Positions 1,002 through 36,370 of a stretch of DNA of 64,000 nucleotides are shown one piece after another. Positions within the stretch are counted from its first letter, which is position 1. Each line of letters starts with the position of its first letter. The notes under the pieces were generated by a model. That model was given only the letters and a program-made list of their open reading frames with translations, ran no database searches and was not told the DNA's origin. A program made the translations under genes and the position numbers. Source of the DNA: an uncultured Synergistaceae bacterium (GTDB lineage: Bacteria > Synergistota > Synergistia > Synergistales > 79-D21); contig CAZFSR010000001.1 of NCBI GenBank assembly GCA_964521575.1, positions 368,470 through 432,469 on the forward strand. Direction: 5' to 3'.

Positions 1002-1402
1002 TTGAATCTCACGTCCAGTTCGTACTGGAAGTCTGGGCGGATCGCGCTTTTCCTGAGCCAGGCGATCAGGGTGGAGGATTCGCCCGGCCGGATCGGCATG
1101 AGGGTCAGGACTGAATGGTCGAGGACGACCCCGTTGATCTCCCGGGAAGAGACGACGATCTTGCCGTCGAAGGTCCTGGCGGAACCGTTCTTCAGGAGAA
1201 CGTAAACCTGGGTTTTCCCGTCGGAGCGGGTTTCCTTCGTTTCGGAAAGCGTCACGGTCACTTTCTTCAGTTCTTCAAGGAACGCGGGTGAGGTTTTCCT
1301 GTCGAAATCGCGCCGCTGCAGGTAAAACCATCCTCCGACGATCGTCGCCAGAAGCAGGAGGATGACGACCGAACAGTCTCCGCGGTGGCGTTTCAGAGGC
1401 AA
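998..1402 (-). CDS. Hypothetical membrane-anchored protein
   Basis: 134 aa with one N-terminal hydrophobic helix (VVILLLLATIVGGWFYL). Translationally coupled to the downstream GGDEF gene. No recognisable domain. Confidence 0.5.
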   Translation of the reverse strand: MPLKRHRGDCSVVILLLLATIVGGWFYLQRRDFDRKTSPAFLEELKKVTVTLSETKETRSDGKTQVYVLLKNGSARTFDGKIVVSSREINGVVLDHSVLTLMPIRPGESSTLIAWLRKSAIRPDFQYELDVRFK

Positions 1403-1478
1403 TGCCGGACCCCCCCTTCAACGGTTCATCAATGACAAACCATTATAACACGGGCCATCCCGGTTTTTCGTCCTGTCC

Positions 1479-2648
1479 TTAAAAGCCAAGGAATCTTCGG
1501 GTCGGAGCGTTCGAGGCGAATGGCGGGTTGTCGTCCTCCAGGTCCACGGACCGCTGGAGGAGAGAGAGGGTTTCCACGTGCCGGGTCTGGGGAAAAAAGT
1601 CGTAGGGGGTGATCGAGACGGCCACGTAGCCGTTTGAGGAAAGAGTTTCCAGGTCCCGGGCCAGTGTCCCGGCGCTGCAGGAAAGGTAGGCGATCCGGGC
1701 CGGCCGGCAGGTTTTCGCGAGCCATTCCGTGATTTCCGGTTCCAGGCCGGTCCGGGGCGGGTTCGCGTAAACGAGCCGGGAAGACCTTGGAACCCCCCGG
1801 ATCCATTCCTCTGCCTGCGGGATGCGGAGGGCGCACCGTCCCCTGAGGAGGCTCGCGCCAGGGGCGTTCAGGCGGGCATTGTCCAAGGCTTCCCCGGATA
1901 GCTCGATCCCGAGGGCCCTGGCACCACGGGCCGTCCATCGGGCAAGGGTGGCCCCGCCGCCGCAATAGAGGTCGATCACCGCCGTCTCCGGGCCGGGATC
2001 GAGGAATGTTTCCGCTTCGTCCAACGACCGGGCGTGAAGGGAAGGGACCAGTTGCTGGAATCCCTGCGGGCCGTGCAAAAGGCCGAGAGGGTTCCGGGAC
2101 AGGGGCTTTCCCCACAAAAGCCGCATGGGGCCCGCGCCGAAAAGGTGCCGCCCCGCGCAAGGGAACAGGTGAAGCCACAGTCCCTCTAGGCCGGTCCGGG
2201 CCAGGGCCTCCGTTTTGCCGGCCATCCAGCCGTCCCCGGGGTCGTTTCGCGTTTTCAGGATGAGGGACGCCTGGGCGCCGACCACCGAAACGATGGCTAG
2301 CGGAAAGGCCCCGGAAGGAGGCAGGGATTCCGCGAGCCAGGCCAGGACGGCCCGGACGCGTTTGCTCTGGACCGGGCAGCGTTCCAGCGGGACGAGCGCA
2401 TCCCGGACCTCCATGCCGAACCGCCATCCGGCCTGGGAATCCCACCGGGCCTTGAGGACCGCCTTGTCGCGGTAACCCCACCTTTCGGCACCCCTCAGGG
2501 CCTCGATACGGCGAAGCGCGCCCGCCCACGGGGCGAGCCTCTCGGCCAGCCAGGATTCCTTCTGGGCGAGGCTGGCGGCTTCGTCCAGGTGACGATGGCT
2601 GCACCCGCGGCATTCAGCCGGGCATCCTTGAGCGGTAAACTCCCCCAT
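1479..2648 (-). CDS. SAM-dependent RNA (uracil-5)-methyltransferase, TrmA/RlmD(RumA) family
   Basis: 389 aa. N-terminal Cys cluster CPAECRGCSHRH, SAM-binding IDLYCGGG, and family motifs VYANPPRTG and YLSCSAGTLARD. Confidence 0.8.
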   Translation of the reverse strand: MGEFTAQGCPAECRGCSHRHLDEAASLAQKESWLAERLAPWAGALRRIEALRGAERWGYRDKAVLKARWDSQAGWRFGMEVRDALVPLERCPVQSKRVRAVLAWLAESLPPSGAFPLAIVSVVGAQASLILKTRNDPGDGWMAGKTEALARTGLEGLWLHLFPCAGRHLFGAGPMRLLWGKPLSRNPLGLLHGPQGFQQLVPSLHARSLDEAETFLDPGPETAVIDLYCGGGATLARWTARGARALGIELSGEALDNARLNAPGASLLRGRCALRIPQAEEWIRGVPRSSRLVYANPPRTGLEPEITEWLAKTCRPARIAYLSCSAGTLARDLETLSSNGYVAVSITPYDFFPQTRHVETLSLLQRSVDLEDDNPPFASNAPTRRFLGF

Positions 2649-8626: not shown

Positions 8627-9637
8627 ATGGCTAAGGTTCTTTACGAGAAGGACGCAAACCCGCAAGTGCTGAAGAGCAGGAAGGTGGCCATCCTGGGGTA
8701 CGGAAGCCAGGGGCACGCCCACGCCCAGAACCTGAAGGAAAGCGGCGTCTCCGTCGTGGTCGGCCTGCATGCCGGCAGCCGGTCGAAGGCGGTCGCCGAA
8801 AAAGACGGCTTTGTCGTGAAAAGCGTTTCCGAGGCGGTGGCCGAGGCCGACGTCGTCATGTTCCTGATGCCCGACCACGTCCAGGCAAAGGTTTTCGAGA
8901 CCGAGGTCCGCCCGGCGCTGAAACCCGGGACGACCCTGGGCTTCTCTCACGGCTTCACGATCCACTACGGCCAGATCGTTCCCCCGAAGACCGCTGATGT
9001 CTTCATGGTGGCCCCCAAGAGCCCGGGGCATCTCGTCCGGCGGATGTACACCGAGGGCAAGGGCGTGCCGGGACTCCTGGCCGTCTACCAGGATGCCACC
9101 GGTATGGCCCGCGAAATCGGCATGGCCTACGCGGCGGCCATCGGTTGCGCCCGGGCGGGCGTCATCGAGACGACCTTCGCCGAGGAGACGGAAACCGACC
9201 TGTTCGGCGAGCAGGCCGTCCTCTGCGGCGGCGTGACCGAGCTCGTAAAGGCGGGTTTCGACACGCTCGTCGACGCCGGATACCAGCCGGAGATCGCCTA
9301 TTTCGAGTGCCTGAACGAGCTCAAGCTCATCGTGGACATGATGTTCGAGGGCGGCATGGGCTGGATGCGCTACTCCGTCAGCGACACGGCCAAGTACGGC
9401 GACTGCGTCGCGGGGCCGAAGGTCGTGGATGCCCGGACCCGGGAGACGATGAGGGAATTGCTGAAGGCCGTGCAGGACGGGACCTTCGCGAAGGACTGGA
9501 TCCTCGAGAACCAGTGCGGACGGCCGCGGATGCGGGCCTGGGAGGCCCGCGAGAGATGCCACCTCATCGAGAAGGTGGGCAGCGAGCTCCGCGACATGAT
9601 GCCCTGGCTCGAGGCGAAAAGACCGCCCGAGGCCTAG
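8627..9637 (+). CDS. ilvC: Ketol-acid reductoisomerase
   Basis: 336 aa. [25 protein letters not shown]-binding motif and class I KARI length. Confidence 0.95.
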
Positions 9638-30426: not shown

Positions 30427-31683
30427 ATGAGGCAGACGAGCGCAACACAGGCGAGCACGAGAGGGTTTTACGGCGAATACGGGGGAAGGTTCGTGCCGGA
30501 GGCGATCGGAACCCTGCTGGACGAACTCGAGGCGGCTTTTGACGCGGCCATGGCCGACGGGGCCTTTGTCGCGGAGATGGACCGCCTGCTGGGGGAATAC
30601 GTGGGACGCCCCTCCCCCATCACGGAGTGCGCCAACCTGTCCAGGGAGCTGGGGGGAGGCCGTCTCTTCCTGAAGAGGGAAGACCTGAACCATACCGGGG
30701 CGCACAAGATCAACAACGCCCTGGGGCAGGCTCTCCTGGCGAAGCGCATGGGCAAGACCCGGCTGATCGCCGAAACGGGGGCGGGGATGCACGGAACCGC
30801 CAGTGCCACCGCGGCGGCCCTGATGGGGATGGAATGCACGGTCTACATGGGAGCCGTGGACGTGGCGAGACAGGCGCCGAACGTTTCCCGCATGAAGGCC
30901 CTGGGGGCCAGGGTCGTTGCGGTGCATGAAGGACAGGCGACCCTCAAGGAGGCCGTCGACGCGGCCCTGGCCGCCTGGATCGAGGATACCGGGGCCTTCT
31001 ACCTTCTGGGTTCCGTCGTCGGGCCATCGCCCTACCCGGAGATCGTCAGGACTTTTCAGTCGGTCATCGGCCGGGAGGCCCGGCAGCAGTTCCTTGAAAG
31101 GGAAGGCCGCTTGCCCGAGGAAGTGGCGGCCTGCGTGGGAGGTGGTAGCAACGCCATGGGCCTCTTTTCGGGTTTCCTGGATGACCCGTCGGTTTTGATC
31201 ACCGGCGTCGAACCCGGCGGGAAAGGGGTCGAGAAGGGACTGGGAGCCCATGCCGCCACGTTATGCGCGGGAACGAGGGGCATCGTTCACGGCTTCCGTA
31301 CGGTGGTCCTCTCTGATGCTTCGGGGGACCCGGCGCCTGTCCACTCGGTCGCGGCCGGGCTGGATTATCCCGGAGTGGGCCCCGAACACGCCCACCTGAG
31401 GGACACGGGGCGCGCCCGTTACGTGGCGGTGACCGATGACGAGGCCCTCGATGCCTTTGGAAGGATGTGCCGTCTTGAAGGGATTATCCCGGCCCTGGAG
31501 AGTTCCCATGCACTGGCCTACGCGATGAAGCGCCTTCCGGGGATGGCCCGTGACCAAGCTATCCTGGTCAACCTGTCCGGGCGCGGCGACAAGGACCTCG
31601 ACACGGTGTTTTCCGAGAAGGAGAAAAAAGCCGCCGCCGGGAGCCTCAAGGGAATCCAGTCGAGGGGGTTGTTTTACGTCTAG
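30427..31683 (+). CDS. trpB: Tryptophan synthase beta chain (orphan; no trpA in window)
   Basis: 418 aa from the ATG 7 nt after GAGGAGGAAG. FYGEYGGRFVPE, the HTGAHKINN PLP-lysine motif and GGGSNAMG. The track start at 30265 would read through the attenuator. Confidence 0.9.
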   Translation: MRQTSATQASTRGFYGEYGGRFVPEAIGTLLDELEAAFDAAMADGAFVAEMDRLLGEYVGRPSPITECANLSRELGGGRLFLKREDLNHTGAHKINNALGQALLAKRMGKTRLIAETGAGMHGTASATAAALMGMECTVYMGAVDVARQAPNVSRMKALGARVVAVHEGQATLKEAVDAALAAWIEDTGAFYLLGSVVGPSPYPEIVRTFQSVIGREARQQFLEREGRLPEEVAACVGGGSNAMGLFSGFLDDPSVLITGVEPGGKGVEKGLGAHAATLCAGTRGIVHGFRTVVLSDASGDPAPVHSVAAGLDYPGVGPEHAHLRDTGRARYVAVTDDEALDAFGRMCRLEGIIPALESSHALAYAMKRLPGMARDQAILVNLSGRGDKDLDTVFSEKEKKAAAGSLKGIQSRGLFYV

Positions 31684-32459
31684 GAGCGGATTTCCCTGGA
31701 TTTCCGGGCGATAAGGGCCGCCCCGACGGCTCCGGCATACGGGGCATCCGGGGAGGTGACCACGGGGCGTCCAAGGCGCTTCTCCAGGAGCCGGACTAGG
31801 TTGCGGCTCCTGGAGACCCCTCCCGTGAAGGCGACGGGCCCGGATCCTCCCAGCTTTTGAAGCATCGCGCAGGCACGGCCCGCGATGGAATCGAGAAGTC
31901 CCAGTGCCAGCGAGTGCTTGTCTACCCCTCGGGCCAGGAGACTGACCACCTCGGATTCTGCGAAGACCGTGCACATGCTGGAAATGGGCTGAGGGGGCAA
32001 ATCTTCCGGCAGCCGGCTGAAATCGTCCAGTTCCATTTCCAGCAAGGCAGCCATGACCTGGAGGAACCGTCCCGTTCCTGCGGCGCATTTGTCGTTCATC
32101 AAAAAATCGTTGACGGTCCCTCCCCTACCGAGGGAGATGGCCTTGCTGTCCTGCCCTCCGATGTCCAGGACGGTTTCCGACCCGGGGTACAGGAAAGCGG
32201 AACCGGCTGCATGACAGGTGATTTCGGTCACCGGCGTGCCGATCCCCTTGAGGCTTTTCCGCCCGTATCCCGTGAGCACGATCCCGGCTGCTTCCGATGG
32301 GTCTATCCTGTTACGGGCCAGTATTTCCCTGAGGGCTTGTTCGCCCGTTTCCCGAGGGTTCCAGCCCGAGGGCACCATGAGCCGGTCCACGACGGATTCG
32401 TCGAAGAGGACGATCTTGATGCCCATGGAGCCCAGGTCGACGCCGACGCTCAGGCTCAC
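31680..32459 (-). CDS. HgdC/BcrAD-type ATP-dependent activase (CoA-substrate-specific enzyme activase)
   Basis: 259 aa from GTG 32459 (GTGA overlap with the DUF3343 stop). ASKHA motifs VGVDLGSMGIKIV, DIGGQDSKAI and NDKCAAGTGRFL (cluster-bridging Cys). The 94 P/R-rich residues upstream in the track ORF are rejected. Confidence 0.85.
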   Translation of the reverse strand: MSLSVGVDLGSMGIKIVLFDESVVDRLMVPSGWNPRETGEQALREILARNRIDPSEAAGIVLTGYGRKSLKGIGTPVTEITCHAAGSAFLYPGSETVLDIGGQDSKAISLGRGGTVNDFLMNDKCAAGTGRFLQVMAALLEMELDDFSRLPEDLPPQPISSMCTVFAESEVVSLLARGVDKHSLALGLLDSIAGRACAMLQKLGGSGPVAFTGGVSRSRNLVRLLEKRLGRPVVTSPDAPYAGAVGAALIARKSREIRS

Positions 32460-32677
32460 GGCTGCTGCACCACCAGTTCGACGGGGATGGCAAGACTTGC
32501 TGCAGCCTCCCTGACGACTTCGGACTGTACGGCGTCGAAGCGCAGGGCGATTCCGCAACTGTCCGCCAGGTGGCGAGGGGTGGGGCAGATTTCGTCCCGC
32601 AGCCCCAGGACTCTCAGGTGCCGGTGAAGGATCATCCCGTCGGTCGCAGTCTTGAAGAGAGCGTACGCAAAGGTCAA
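32456..32677 (-). CDS. DUF3343-like small protein (putative Se/S carrier-like fold)
   Basis: 73 aa with a TTG start overlapping the upstream stop. Pattern ...ILHRHLRVLGLRDEICPTPRHLADSCGIALRF matches my memory of DUF3343 (xPxPRxxSSxCGxxxxF). Confidence 0.65.
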   Translation of the reverse strand: MTFAYALFKTATDGMILHRHLRVLGLRDEICPTPRHLADSCGIALRFDAVQSEVVREAAASLAIPVELVVQQP

Positions 32678-33222
32678 GTCCGTTTTCCTTTCGCAAGCCT
32701 TTCCCGGGTTTCTTCCCAGCAGGCGGTTTCGGGGTCCCCATTGTCCGCGTCGGTCATGGCGAGGTCAAGGCCCCGGGCGGAAAGTCCCTGGCGAAGGACC
32801 TCGATGAAAACGCCAGGTCCCTCCCCTCGCCGGGCCTCCTGGCTGCCGCGGGCGGTTCCGCCGCGACAGCCGAGGCAGGTCTCGCGGACACCGCAACTGG
32901 GACTTCCCTTGACGCCGACGATTCCCAGGATCTCGACGCCGTTTTCAAGCGCATCCTCGACCTGGTCGATAAACGGTTCGAGGATGGAGGCACAGTGCCG
33001 CCGGAAAGCCGGTGTGTCGTACTGCTCTGAAGTCATGCCCCACCGTTTCAGGCCCAGGAACGTACTTTCCGGGCATGGAAGCTGAATGATCCCGAGTCCG
33101 TCCCGGGCTATGGGAAGGAGCAGGTTTTCCAGGGCTCCCGTATAGGCGGCTTCGCCTTCCACGATCGCGCTGGCGTTCAGGATGCAGTGACAGAGAACGA
33201 CTATCCGGCGGCTGCGCTTCAT
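32674..33222 (-). CDS. Cys-rich protein, TudS(DUF523)-related putative desulfidase (CD3072-like; from memory)
   Basis: 182 aa with RBS AGGAGG. Conserved-looking Cys positions: VVLCHCILN, QLPCPE, GSPSCGVRETCLGC. Confidence 0.55.
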   Translation of the reverse strand: MKRSRRIVVLCHCILNASAIVEGEAAYTGALENLLLPIARDGLGIIQLPCPESTFLGLKRWGMTSEQYDTPAFRRHCASILEPFIDQVEDALENGVEILGIVGVKGSPSCGVRETCLGCRGGTARGSQEARRGEGPGVFIEVLRQGLSARGLDLAMTDADNGDPETACWEETRERLAKGKRT

Positions 33223-33232
33223 GGATGTCCTC

Positions 33233-33811
33233 CTATTGACCGGTTGTTCCCTTTAGAAACGGGTTGCCGCCCTTCGCCAGTGTCTGCGGAGGGAGCTTGG
33301 GCAGGATCAGCGCCACGAGGACCGAACAGGCGACCTTGTCCACCAGGTTCCCGGTGATGCGGGGGATGAAAGCGGAGGTGAAGATCGAGTTGCCGCTCTT
33401 CAAGAGCCAGAGGAAAAGCAGGTCCGTGCCGCCCCCCGTGAGGCCGCCGTAAATCCAGACGGCGATGGGCGTGCCGATCAAAGGGGCGATGACGGCCAGG
33501 GCCAGGCCCGTGGCAATGGCGACCGGGAGGGTAAAGCGGAACTTTCGGGCGACAAGGCCGGCAACCAGCCCGATCGCCATGTTGACCAGGGCGAAGGGGA
33601 TGTCCCGCGGGTTGGTCAGGATTCCCTGGACGACGTTCGTGACGAGGCCGATGAGGACGCCGTGGAAAGGCCCGAGCAGGACCGCGCCGAAAATCGTCCC
33701 GAGGGTGTCCAGGAAGATAAGGGGGATGTGAAGCATCTGGACGAATGTCCCGAGGGCCAGGTTGACAACCACGCAGATGGCGCTGAAGGTCAGCGCAAAG
33801 TTCTTGTTCAT
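33233..33811 (-). CDS. ECF-transporter S-component-like membrane protein (CD3073-like; from memory)
   Basis: 192 aa with about 6 TM helices and an RBS AAGGAG. No EcfA/EcfT genes in the window. Confidence 0.65.
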   Translation of the reverse strand: MNKNFALTFSAICVVVNLALGTFVQMLHIPLIFLDTLGTIFGAVLLGPFHGVLIGLVTNVVQGILTNPRDIPFALVNMAIGLVAGLVARKFRFTLPVAIATGLALAVIAPLIGTPIAVWIYGGLTGGGTDLLFLWLLKSGNSIFTSAFIPRITGNLVDKVACSVLVALILPKLPPQTLAKGGNPFLKGTTGQ

Positions 33812-33844
33812 CTGTTTTCTCCTTTTTCTTCTCTCCGGCCTGCT

Positions 33845-35125
33845 CTAGCGTCCCAGGCTTTCGACGAAAGCTTCGATCCGGGTGCGAAGCTGTCCCTCGT
33901 CGCCGGAAGCATAGTCGGTCTCGAGAGGCAGGAAGGGAATGCCCTCGTCCTGGAGGCGCTTTCTCAATTTTTCGTTTTCCACCTGGTACGTGGTGCAGAA
34001 GCTCAGGTTCAGGCCCACGACCCCGTCCACGCCATATTCCCGGACCAGCCTGGCCACGTCGTCTGCGCGTCCCTCGTTCGGGGAGAAGCAGGCGCAGTGG
34101 ATCCGGTCGAAATAGCGGTGCGCGATCGCGTCGACCAGATCTTCGACCGTGGAGGCACCTGACGTGTCCACTCGGCTTTCGAAGTACCGTGTGCCGGTGC
34201 AGTTTTCCTCGACGACCACGGCGGCGCCGCTGGTTTCGATGATTTTGTGGACCTTCCAGTTGGGGACAACGATGGGGGTTCCGGTAACCAGAAGACGCTT
34301 CGTTCCCTCCGGGAAGATGGCCTTTCCGGTTTTGATTCTTTCTTCGCATTCCTCCGCCAGGGCGGTCGCCTGTGAAATGAAGCGATCGGCGTCGTCGTAA
34401 AACGCGACCTGGCTGGCCAGGAGCATGTCCAGCCCGCTGATGGGGACTTTCGGGGCCTTTCGGGTTTCATACAATCGCTGAAGGATGGCACGCTTCCGAT
34501 CCACCGTCTCGATGGCGGAAAGCAGCCGGTCGAAAGTGAGGCGATTGCCGGTGACTTCTTCCAGTTTTGTCACGAGATCGGTCATGGATTTCCTGAAAAG
34601 GGCAAAGCCGGCTTCACTCTTGGTGTTGGGCAGGTCCATCACGTAGGTGGGAGCCATGTCACCCAGGACTTCCCAGGCCTTCTTCTTGCCGTCGCAGGTG
34701 TTTTCCCCGACGACCAGGTCGACGGACTGGAAATAGGGGCAGGTTCTCGAGACCTTTGCCCCGATACCCGCCTTGATCAGGGGGCAGAGGTTCCGGGGAA
34801 GGACCTGTTCCCCCGCGGGCACCCAGAACTCGGAGCCGGCACACAGGCCGACCATGATCCCGTCCAGGGCCATGACGATCTCCTCGGGAACGTAGATGCA
34901 GAAACTCCCGACGATTTTTCCGCCGCGGGCCTTGTGGTCCAGCAGTTCCTGGATCCGGAGGCCGTGGACCTCGGCGATCACCATGTTGAAGTAATCCATT
35001 CCCAGGGGACGGTCCGGCTGGGTCAGGAAGACCTGTTCAAACGCGGGGGGCAGAGCGGCGCAAAGCTGGTCGTGGGTGGCCAGGTCCATGCCCAGTCCTT
35101 CCCACATCTTGTGATAATCGGCCAT
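33845..35125 (-). CDS. 2-hydroxyacyl-CoA dehydratase / benzoyl-CoA reductase family protein, single-subunit (double-cubane-cluster-protein-like)
   Basis: 426 aa from the ATG 8 nt after GAGGAGG. Multiple conserved-type Cys (GSFCIYVPEE, GLCAGSE, NLCPLIKAG, ENTCDGKKK, EENCTGTRY, HCACFSPN). Encoded in one operon with an HgdC-type activase. Confidence 0.8.
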   Translation of the reverse strand: MADYHKMWEGLGMDLATHDQLCAALPPAFEQVFLTQPDRPLGMDYFNMVIAEVHGLRIQELLDHKARGGKIVGSFCIYVPEEIVMALDGIMVGLCAGSEFWVPAGEQVLPRNLCPLIKAGIGAKVSRTCPYFQSVDLVVGENTCDGKKKAWEVLGDMAPTYVMDLPNTKSEAGFALFRKSMTDLVTKLEEVTGNRLTFDRLLSAIETVDRKRAILQRLYETRKAPKVPISGLDMLLASQVAFYDDADRFISQATALAEECEERIKTGKAIFPEGTKRLLVTGTPIVVPNWKVHKIIETSGAAVVVEENCTGTRYFESRVDTSGASTVEDLVDAIAHRYFDRIHCACFSPNEGRADDVARLVREYGVDGVVGLNLSFCTTYQVENEKLRKRLQDEGIPFLPLETDYASGDEGQLRTRIEAFVESLGR

Positions 35126-35427
35126 AAGGCAATCCTCCTCTGAAAAATCGGCAACAGGCAAGAGTTCCCGGCGGGAGTGCCGGAACGCCTGCCGTCATGT
35201 CTGAAAGCCGTTTTGCCGTAGGAGTGCCCTGGGGGGAGGGGTTGTGTCAGAAGGTACCGGAAAAGCAGGCTGGTCGATCCGGTCCTTTGGCGCCGTCCTC
35301 GCTGCCCTGGGCGATCCCCGACTGCGGTGCAGACCCTGCACCGCCCGTTCTGCAGTCTCAGTGGCGCTCCTTCCGGATCATCTCCAACCCTCCTTTCGCG
35401 GAAAAGGCTTTACTGACAAGGATGATA
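35126..35427 (-). promoter_or_regulatory. Promoter plus ~290-nt structured leader; candidate riboswitch (possibly cobalamin-like, uncertain)
   Basis: TTGCCC (35450-35445), 17-nt spacer, TATCAT (35427-35422). The leader contains AAAGGAGGGTTGGAGATGATCCGGAAGGAGCGCCACTGAGA (GCCACTG box), nested GC helices, ACCAGCCTGC and a long 3-prime hairpin followed by GATTTTT before the RBS. Confidence 0.4.
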
Positions 35428-35482
35428 AGGTATTAACCGAAAACGGGCAACGGAACAAGGCTTTAGGGAGCCGTTTCCCCCT

Positions 35483-36370
35483 TCAGGCCGTTGCCTTCCA
35501 GTGTTTGAAGCCCTTGCCGAAAACCTCCGTGGCGTCGGTCTGGATCAGGAAGGCGTTCGGGTCGTGCTCGGCCAGGAAGAGTTTCAGGTCGGCCACCTGG
35601 CGGGGCAGGAGAAGGGACATGACGATCGGGCGTTCCCTGCCCGTGTAGGCTCCCTCGCTGTGGATCACCGAAGCCCCGCGGCGGAGTTCCTCCAGGATGT
35701 ACCGCCTCACCTCGAGGTGCTTGTCGGAGATGATGAAGACCTGCACGCAGCGATCAAAGGATCGGAGCGCGCCGTCCAGGAAGGTGGAACCGGCGAACAG
35801 CATCGCCACCGCGTAAAGCGTGTTCTCGATCCCGACGATGAAGATCGCGGGGATTAGGACGAAGGAGTTGATCCAGAAGGTGAACTTTCCGATCTCCATG
35901 CCGGTCTTCCTGCGGACGATGGCGGCGAGGATGTCCGTCCCCCCCATGGACCCGCCCGCGTTGAAGACGAGTGCCCCGCTGATCCCGTTGATCGCGGCGG
36001 CCGTAAGGACGGCAAGAAGCTTGTCCTGCAGGGGCGGGGGAGGAAGCATCCTGAACAGGTCGAGCGAGCCCGAGAAGAGAAGGACCGAATAAGCGGTGAG
36101 GTACAGGAAGCGCCGCGGCAGGACCCTCCAGCCGAGGGCGAAAAGGCCGATGTTGAAGACCAGGTTGACGAGGCCGACAGGGAGCCCCAGGGTGTAGTTC
36201 AGCAGGATGGAAATGCCGGTGAACCCGGTACTGGGAAACCGGTAGGGCAGGACGAGCAACGAGATGGCCAGGGCGTAGAGAACGGTTCCGACCGTCACTC
36301 TCAGGACCCCCGGCGCCTCCCTTTTCACGGTTCTCCTGGTCAGAAGGGTCAAGCGGGTGAGAAGGCGCAT
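35483..36370 (-). CDS. YitT-family membrane protein (with DUF2179-like C-terminal domain)
   Basis: 295 aa. N-terminal 5-6 TM region with GGTDIL-type motif (GGSMGGTDILAAIV) and a soluble C-terminal domain. Confidence 0.8.
   Translation of the reverse strand: MRLLTRLTLLTRRTVKREAPGVLRVTVGTVLYALAISLLVLPYRFPSTGFTGISILLNYTLGLPVGLVNLVFNIGLFALGWRVLPRRFLYLTAYSVLLFSGSLDLFRMLPPPPLQDKLLAVLTAAAINGISGALVFNAGGSMGGTDILAAIVRRKTGMEIGKFTFWINSFVLIPAIFIVGIENTLYAVAMLFAGSTFLDGALRSFDRCVQVFIISDKHLEVRRYILEELRRGASVIHSEGAYTGRERPIVMSLLLPRQVADLKLFLAEHDPNAFLIQTDATEVFGKGFKHWKATA

Follow-up and report, generated by a model that had tools for sequence, protein, structure and literature searches.

What does the long leader of a double-cubane-cluster protein (DCCP) operon in an uncultured Synergistaceae bacterium respond to? 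The 64-kb stretch of its contig CAZFSR010000001.1 analysed here (the window) carries a gap of 357 nt on the minus strand, which reaches from the stop codon of a gene for a YitT-family membrane protein (35483) to the ATG of the DCCP gene (35125). The initial annotation regarded this gap as a structured regulatory leader, possibly a cobalamin-type or a novel riboswitch. Its first part is borne out, as the leader is long, conserved in relatives and outside any RNA family catalogued in Rfam. Close to the predicted transcript start, however, the leader holds a Shine-Dalgarno (SD) sequence, a mini open reading frame (mini-ORF) ending with UGA and a hairpin which resembles a bacterial selenocysteine insertion sequence (SECIS). 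We consider it more probable than not that the leader senses selenium status by means of the ribosome, via a UGA that is decoded as selenocysteine (Sec).

The positions of all elements are given in Table 1. The promoter, the nested helices, the GCGCC...GGCGC closure and the distal hairpin listed in the initial annotation are all present on the minus strand where it had placed them. The promoter would start transcription ~20 nt 5’ of the leader SD. Its hexamers are kept in the close relatives (L081-L088), and other lineages show a -10-like box 25-45 nt 5’ of the leader SD.

How similar is the hairpin to an authentic SECIS? The 17-nt apex of the window hairpin, GGUGCAGGGUCUGCACC, is nearly identical to the SelB-binding SECIS minihelix of Escherichia coli fdhF, GGUUGCAGGUCUGCACC; the bulged U is absent and one G is extra, otherwise both are alike. 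The fdhF minihelix sequence was verified, a 45-nt query matching fdhF at 100% in 5419 of 5426 E. coli genomes. The published model of bacterial SECIS elements comprises a loop of 3-9 nt, an upper stem of 4-16 bp, a UGA-to-loop distance of 16-37 nt and a minimum free energy (MFE) of ≤ -7.5 kcal/mol, with a G at loop position 1 or 2 that is usually followed by G or U (PMC13188914, Fig 2A). Every leader hairpin described here falls within this model, having a loop of 3-5 nt (GGU, GGA, GGC, GUC, CGGGA or GUU), a stem of 5-9 bp, a spacing of 18-23 nt and an MFE between -11.8 and -25.8 kcal/mol. In three lineages the loop is located at nt 22-24 counted from the U of UGA, as in fdhF. Judged from sequence and predicted fold, the element has every feature of a bacterial SECIS that can be checked in silico.

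The apical hairpin covaries. Among 13 sequences, 6 of its 9 pairs carry changes on both sides, a covariation score that was reached by none of 500 shuffles, and slid controls scored far lower. A covariance model of the UGA-hairpin unit run against 1.0 Mb returned only these leaders (E between 2e-7 and 0.02) together with a weak match which led to the Chloroflexia copy described below. The model scored one of its own training sequences, L031, at just E = 0.1.

Is the unit confined to the window and its nearest relatives? Searches with the window leader against 80 genome loci using blastn and nhmmer gave no matches at all, and the diverged copies came to light solely through visual inspection and a structure-aware pattern. 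They are present in at least six diverged Synergistota lineages and in one metagenome-assembled genome (MAG) of the Chloroflexia (L078), and they always lie ahead of operons with an NF040772 DCCP gene. The layout is shared. An SD and a start codon are followed by 4-12 codons and a UGA; 18-23 nt further on comes a hairpin whose loop is rich in G, and past the UGA a frame of 25-39 codons runs up to a CCUCC or C-rich tract. In all leaders the spacing between SD and start is 5-11 nt and the start codon is ATG or GTG. The codons ahead of the TGA number 4-7 in the 13 distinct Synergistota leaders and 12 in L078. TGA is the first stop in 13/13 of the former and in L078 as well; the second stops vary (TGA, TAG, TAA). 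Lineages with a DCCP only 53-72% identical to that of the window exhibit the same architecture, though sequence alignment of their leaders with that of the window is not possible. A MAFFT alignment of the full 5’ unit across all lineages misaligned the UGAs, and solely the segment from UGA to hairpin aligned usefully. A loose scan for the whole pattern on both strands of 3.4 Mb yielded 67 hits, about half of them these leaders; the remainder amounts to about one chance hit in every 100 kb. In each lineage the true hits lie 190-370 nt 5’ of the operon start. Loose pattern scans of Firmicutes and other loci gave chance-like matches within coding regions only.

Within the window clade, more of the leader can be compared. 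Alignment of the orthologous leaders, a check named in the initial annotation, shows that the 357-nt intergenic region is conserved in five further distinct relatives, with compensatory changes that include the apical hairpin. Conservation is higher in the core than in the promoter or in the distal part. The 130 nt at the 5’ end fold into a closed domain of several helices that carries compensatory changes; its unpaired stretches AAGGA, AAAGGA and GAGGAC are highly conserved. The long-range helix between the leader SD (GGAGGGUUG) and CAACCCCUCC is paired in 98% of cells and has compensatory changes in 2 pairs; the GCGCC/GGCGC helix likewise carries such changes. In the long-range helix the anti-SD-like element CAACCCCUCCCCCC is the 3’ arm; it also shows complementarity to the SD of DCCP. 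The distal hairpin folds at -24.1 kcal/mol (z = -2.9). A simple terminator scan made no call on it (35194-35149), and relatives of the clade have hairpins at this position that are followed by U-runs of variable quality. Folding of the whole leader is mildly better than that of shuffles (z = -1.66). Since this energy is a weak signal, our argument rests on the comparison with relatives.

The frame beyond the UGA is kept in a particular manner. It has exactly 36 codons and zero indels in six distinct members of the clade. The position of the second stop is maintained while its type changes, to TAG in L087 and to TAA in L173, L031 and L175. The encoded peptide has no motif common to the lineages and codon-position bias is absent, the variable columns in the clade being distributed as 21/18/16 of 44 over codon positions 1/2/3, so that selection on the protein is not indicated. 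Frame, length and stop that are kept while the peptide is not argue for a leader ORF translated for regulation, not for a functional selenoprotein. The 60-nt tract at the second stop is rich in C (0.47-0.62) and poor in G (0.08-0.18) in the window clade, L002 and L170, where it ranks among the top 0.01-0.3% of windows. It is not marked in L090 or L173.

Why should such a leader precede this operon? The genes following it encode DCCP, an ECF (energy-coupling factor) transporter S component, a TudS-related desulfidase, a PF11823 carrier and an activase, in this order (31680-35125, minus strand). Clusters with selA, selB and selD are known for DUF3343, YedE, YedF and HgdB-like/activase genes (PMC5322559), and of 970 NF040772 proteins, 955 belong to SelD-positive genomes (bioRxiv 10.1101/2022.07.06.499078). 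By the relatives of its DCCP, the organism is a member of the Synergistota, a phylum that ranks with those richest in selenoproteins (PMC13188914). A PF11823 gene lies 3’ of the DCCP gene, adjacent or within the operon, at all Synergistota loci with downstream sequence and a gene call; L082, which lacks a gene call at this position, and the short contigs L085, L171, L172 and L178 are left out of this count. In L082 (8453-8668) the missing call falls where the neighbours have PF11823, and either an oversight of the gene caller or an in-frame stop may account for it. The initial annotation had stated that a corrinoid-responsive leader would require a different reading of the operon. A different reading is indeed needed, the link however appears to be to selenium, not to corrinoids. 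Because of the leader and the published link between DCCP and SelD, the CD3073 transporter and the CD3072 'desulfidase' may act on a selenium compound, a deselenidase being conceivable.

Leaders of other lineages head operons with further genes of this kind. In the Thermanaerovibrio-like L173/L180 (4001-9299) the operon encodes DCCP, activase, PF11823, YedF, an SclA-like cysteine desulfurase, YedE and a TusA-domain protein. YedF (TIGR03527) and the putative selenium transporter YedE (TIGR04112) both score above cut-off in L180, and the TusA domain is PF01206. This would make it a putative full operon for selenium uptake and delivery. In L175/L176 (300-3925) the leader lies ahead of a PstS-family ABC transporter (TIGR02136, 210 bits vs cut-off 206), followed by DCCP, PF11823, an SsuA-like ABC system and a second HGD-D protein. 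The PstS-family transporter could be an oxyanion importer, selenite or selenate being conceivable. This lineage occurs in many samples, its DCCP protein being found in 322 index blocks of the collection.

How could the leader work? We infer that it is translated, that its UGA is decoded as Sec, that SelB binds the hairpin and that regulation results. Transcription would start shortly ahead of the strong leader SD, and a ribosome would translate the seven codons of the mini-ORF until it reaches the UGA (35360-35358), where the hairpin 22 nt further on would act as a bacterial SECIS. If SelB-GTP-Sec-tRNA(Sec) is present, the UGA would be read as Sec and 36 more codons translated, up to the second stop at the CCUCC/C-rich tract; if it is absent, the ribosome would be released at the UGA. 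Release and read-through would leave the leader in different folds and thereby set the expression of the genes for DCCP, the ECF S component, the TudS-like protein, the Se/S carrier and the activase. The folds may differ in whether the leader SD is paired with CAACCCCUCC, in whether the C-rich tract, which resembles a Rho utilisation (rut) site, is exposed or covered, or in their effect on the terminator-like hairpin or the DCCP SD. Candidate output steps are Rho, the terminator and masking of the SD.

The Chloroflexia copy is instructive in this respect. Its UGA-to-loop distances are 19 and 25 nt for its two UGAs, and, counted from the second UGA, the loop has its G at position 23 and its U at position 24, which matches fdhF. 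Past the read-through frame of 28 codons lies a clean intrinsic terminator, and the anti-SD element of the leader is complementary to its loop, GGGAGGUU. This element (AACCUCC) can pair with either the leader SD (-14.8 kcal/mol) or the terminator loop and 5’ arm (-14.7 kcal/mol). In predicted folds of partial transcripts, release at the UGA favours the SD:anti-SD pairing together with the terminator, and passage of the ribosome favours an anti-terminator. Owing to these alternative pairings and to the precedent of Treponema primitia (see below), we lean towards read-through switching the operon on. The opposite sign, with the operon on under selenium starvation as in trp attenuation, is conceivable too and would suit the operon containing YedE. 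With its tandem UGAs and textbook intrinsic terminator the L078 version is the best candidate for in vitro dissection.

Parts of this arrangement have precedents. We know of no RNA-level sensor dedicated to selenium in bacteria, and of no natural attenuator that senses a UGA with a SECIS. The cases of selenium control known to us are a LysR-type regulator, the SECIS-like operator of selAB and polarity inside selenoprotein genes. Literature searches for a leader ORF with UGA and SECIS found no description of one in the library consulted. Like the SECIS of the fdhF type, the leader has an in-frame UGA, a stem-loop 18-23 nt on and a G[G/U] opening a small apical loop. It differs in being part of an ORF with 4-12 codons ahead of the UGA at the 5’ end of an operon and not of a conserved enzyme gene, with a peptide that is not conserved. 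With trp, his and tna attenuation it shares a short SD-led 5’ ORF, a diagnostic codon that would need a scarce charged tRNA, and a leader stop located at a regulatory RNA element; a rut-like tract or a terminator-like hairpin lies further downstream. Unlike there, the sensing codon would be a UGA with SECIS, served by SelB and Sec-tRNA(Sec), and failure would lead to release instead of stalling on a sense codon. As in tnaC, a tract of rut-like composition, C-rich and G-poor, adjoins the leader stop.

In T. primitia fdhF(Sec), translation through the UGA/SECIS controls downstream transcription, and the same paper states that attenuation via incorporation of a rare amino acid was unreported in nature (PMC3892789). 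The proposed leader would likewise let UGA/SECIS read-through decide whether downstream transcription continues; there, the effect is inside a selenoprotein gene, whereas here a dedicated leader ORF precedes genes free of UGA. For E. coli selAB, a SECIS-like element in the 5’ untranslated region, 3 nt from the selA SD, regulates the operon (Thanbichler and Bock 2002, as cited in PMC13449736). Both would use a SECIS-type hairpin to regulate selenium-related genes instead of making a selenoenzyme; the selAB element is untranslated and next to the SD it regulates, while the leader hairpin follows the UGA of a mini-ORF and is ~180 nt away from the DCCP SD.

Could the leader be a riboswitch after all? 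A cobalamin riboswitch, for adenosylcobalamin or a variant, has next to no probability left. What spoke for it was a loose resemblance of strings (AAAGG, GCCACTG). The 'GCCACTG box' taken for a B12-like string comprises codons 6-7 of the mini-ORF (CGC CAC) and its UGA stop, and the cobalamin-core-like string AAAGGAGGG is the SD of the mini-ORF. Rfam 15, RF00174 and its variants included, gave no match in the whole window at gathering thresholds, and none within 35050-35550 even at E ≤ 10; with the diverged leaders of L001 and L173 nothing meaningful, noise at most, was returned at E ≤ 10. The B12-like strings, moreover, are not kept in L001, L090, L170, L031 or L175, and we rejected this candidate. 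A novel metabolite riboswitch, for instance for a selenium or sulfur compound, would make the mini-ORF and its UGA incidental and the helices an aptamer. The closed multi-helix domain of the window clade with its conserved unpaired stretches and compensatory changes would suit this, as would the hairpin ahead of the ribosome-binding site (RBS), which resembles an expression platform. Apart from the lack of any Rfam match at E ≤ 10, the junction and the conserved unpaired stretches are not common to the other lineages, and an aptamer would have no need of an invariant TGA with a start codon in the same frame. The lineages have in common a conserved translational unit and not an aptamer junction, hence a metabolite riboswitch is not the best reading and we rate it as unlikely.

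Just as unlikely is an operator of the selAB kind, where binding of SelB with Sec-tRNA to the hairpin would change the fold or the access of ribosomes without any translation. The hairpin is strongly conserved and covarying, and a SECIS-like element with a regulatory role has the precedent mentioned above. The selAB element is 3 nt from the regulated SD as against ~180 nt here; moreover the conserved SD, start codon, UGA at SECIS distance and second stop would be without purpose. SD, ATG, UGA, SECIS-like hairpin and an open frame up to a fixed second stop could also belong to an unannotated small selenoprotein (~44 aa) as first gene of the operon, and some lineages do show a U-x-C motif. This motif is lost even within the window clade, though, and no peptide motif beyond that imposed by the hairpin is common to the lineages. 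The variable columns are spread equally over the codon positions, and Sec would be residue 5-8 (13 in L078). We consider a functional peptide slightly less probable again than the two preceding possibilities. The short 5’ ORF, the rut-like tract and the terminator-like hairpin would also fit a generic leader-peptide or translation-coupled attenuator whose UGA is a plain stop or a sensor of release factor 2 (RF2), the hairpin being a pause or structural element. This would leave unexplained why the TGA is invariant and why the G-rich loop has the spacing of a SECIS, as well as the near-identity with fdhF, the kept read-through frame and the restriction to selenium-linked operons, and we regard it as the most doubtful of these four readings.

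A leader that senses selenium by Sec decoding has to be weighed against several observations which speak against it. On the side of the hairpin, that of the window lacks the bulged U of fdhF and its loop is 4 nt farther from the UGA; conservation of the lower SECIS stem is poor, with 58% of cells paired. Of all TGA triplets of the window, 66% fit the permissive SECIS model, as against only 2.9% for a stricter form to which all these leaders conform. In GC-rich sequence, an open read-through frame is nothing remarkable by itself. L175 has, in addition, an out-of-frame alternative mini-ORF (ATG ATG...TAA), and in L078 a single hairpin would serve two in-frame UGAs one codon apart. On the side of the output, SD:anti-SD duplexes are no better than with random segments outside the window clade, a comparison of cognate with non-cognate anti-SD pairing to SDs shows no signal, and constrained folding with masked ribosome positions has no consistent effect on accessibility of the DCCP SD. 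Neither sel genes nor tRNA-Sec nor selenoprotein genes are present in the 64-kb window, and ARAGORN found no tRNA-Sec in the fetched flanks. Sec competence is thus deduced from the phylum and the co-occurrence of DCCP with SelD. An authentic SECIS of Synergistota for comparison was sought in the window and the loci, and none was found; a search for GrdA homologues returned proteins that carry no taxon labels. The only authentic UGA/SECIS context in the sequences examined belongs to another phylum; it is a partial grdA of a Coriobacteriaceae member (L049, 1-120) at a contig edge, with the Sec codon context TGT TTC GTT TGA ACG GCA.

Finally, orthologous DCCP operons exist without the element, namely L166, L089/L168/L169, L177, L178 and all Firmicutes loci, from which we conclude that the leader is facultative and patchily distributed. 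Those of the Synergistota carry DCCP/PF11823 operons of 61-72% identity with short, unrelated 5’ regions that lack the UGA-hairpin unit.

Table 1. Elements of the leader and genes of the operon in the window, followed by the leader units of the window clade and of other lineages.
Feature	Position	Strand	Particulars
Sigma-70-like promoter TTGCCC-17-TATCAT	35422..35450	-	sole such site in 34900-35700; 0.1 expected from shuffles
Leader SD GGAGG	35389..35393	-	7 nt ahead of mini-ORF ATG
Long-range helix, 5’ arm GGAGGGUUG	35393-35385	-	overlaps leader SD
Leader mini-ORF (MIRKERH-UGA)	35358..35381	-	7 codons; UGA 35360-35358; in frame as AAAGGAGGG-N6-ATG ATC CGG AAG GAG CGC CAC TGA
SECIS-like stem-loop	35320..35357	-	directly 3’ of UGA; GACTGC/GCAGTC around GGTGCAG/CTGCACC
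Apical hairpin GCGGUGCAG-GGU-CUGCACCGC	35344-35324	-	loop GGU 35335-35333; UGA-to-loop 22 nt
Read-through frame	35247..35357	-	open for 36 codons past UGA, then TGA 35249-35247
Anti-SD-like element CAACCCCUCCCCCC	35231..35244	-	begins 3 nt past second stop
C-rich, G-poor rut-like tract	35218..35277	-	C 0.47, G 0.15; centred on second stop; top 0.08% of the window's 60-nt windows
Terminator-like hairpin and A-UUUUU	35143..35194	-	hairpin 35194-35149, A-UUUUU 35148-35143; just 5’ of DCCP RBS
DCCP SD GAGGAGG	35134..35140	-	sequence
Double-cubane-cluster protein (DCCP)	33845..35125	-	NF040772, 474.8 bits vs cut-off 350; PF06050
ECF transporter S component, CD3073 family	33233..33811	-	NF045596, 239 bits vs cut-off 180
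TudS-related putative desulfidase, CD3072 family	32674..33222	-	NF045597, 165.7 bits vs cut-off 130
Small Se/S-carrier protein, 73 aa	32456..32677	-	PF11823/DUF3343, 40.2 bits vs cut-off 25
ATP-dependent activase, BcrAD_BadFG	31680..32459	-	TIGR00241
Window clade L081, L082-85, L086, L087, L088			DCCP 90-93% identical; 7 codons + TGA; window-type hairpin
L001 / L002			MVRVFR / MTWAFR + TGA; hairpin AAUGCA-CGGGA-UGCAUU
L090 / L180			MRVM + TGA; hairpin CGCAU-GUC-AUGCG
L173			MRIL + TGA; hairpin CGCAU-GGC-AUGCG
L170			MAHRL + TGA; hairpin UGCAU-GGC-AUGCA
L031			MRCFVYT + TGA; hairpin GCAUGU-GGA-ACAUGC
L175 (AT-rich)			GTG AAA TAC ACA + TGA; hairpin UAAUGCA-CGGGA-UGCAUUG
L078 (Chloroflexia MAG)	1290-1545		10 codons + UGA CUU UGA; 8-bp stem, GUU loop

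Two further observations concern the remainder of the window. A trpB gene (TIGR00263; 30265-31683, plus strand) converges on the activase gene with an overlap of 4 nt between the ends. Its ORF, with a TTG start, is ~55 codons longer than the TrpB domain, and the true start is therefore probably an internal ATG. At 9480-9575 on the minus strand ARAGORN calls a 96-nt tRNA-Gly(ccc) for which a tRNA match is lacking in Rfam even at E ≤ 10; the call is probably a false positive inside a coding region.

What would the leader mean for this group of bacteria? It may be the first natural cis-regulatory element which gauges selenium by Sec decoding, through release or read-through at a leader UGA/SECIS, and which controls an operon for selenium trafficking and a double-cubane reductase in at least two phyla (Synergistota and Chloroflexota), a claim for which we hold belief and doubt to be evenly balanced. 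If true, Sec would join the amino acids that are sensed by attenuation, and the unit would represent a compact and portable selenium-responsive switch. For annotation it advises caution, as SECIS-like hairpins are possible outside of selenoenzyme genes. The NF040772 proteins co-occur with SelD in a near-perfect manner while their physiological substrate is a puzzle, on which the leader bears. An operon wired to Sec-tRNA would, if the proposed mechanism holds, speak for a role in selenium metabolism of DCCP, the CD3073 ECF component, the CD3072 TudS-like desulfidase and DUF3343.

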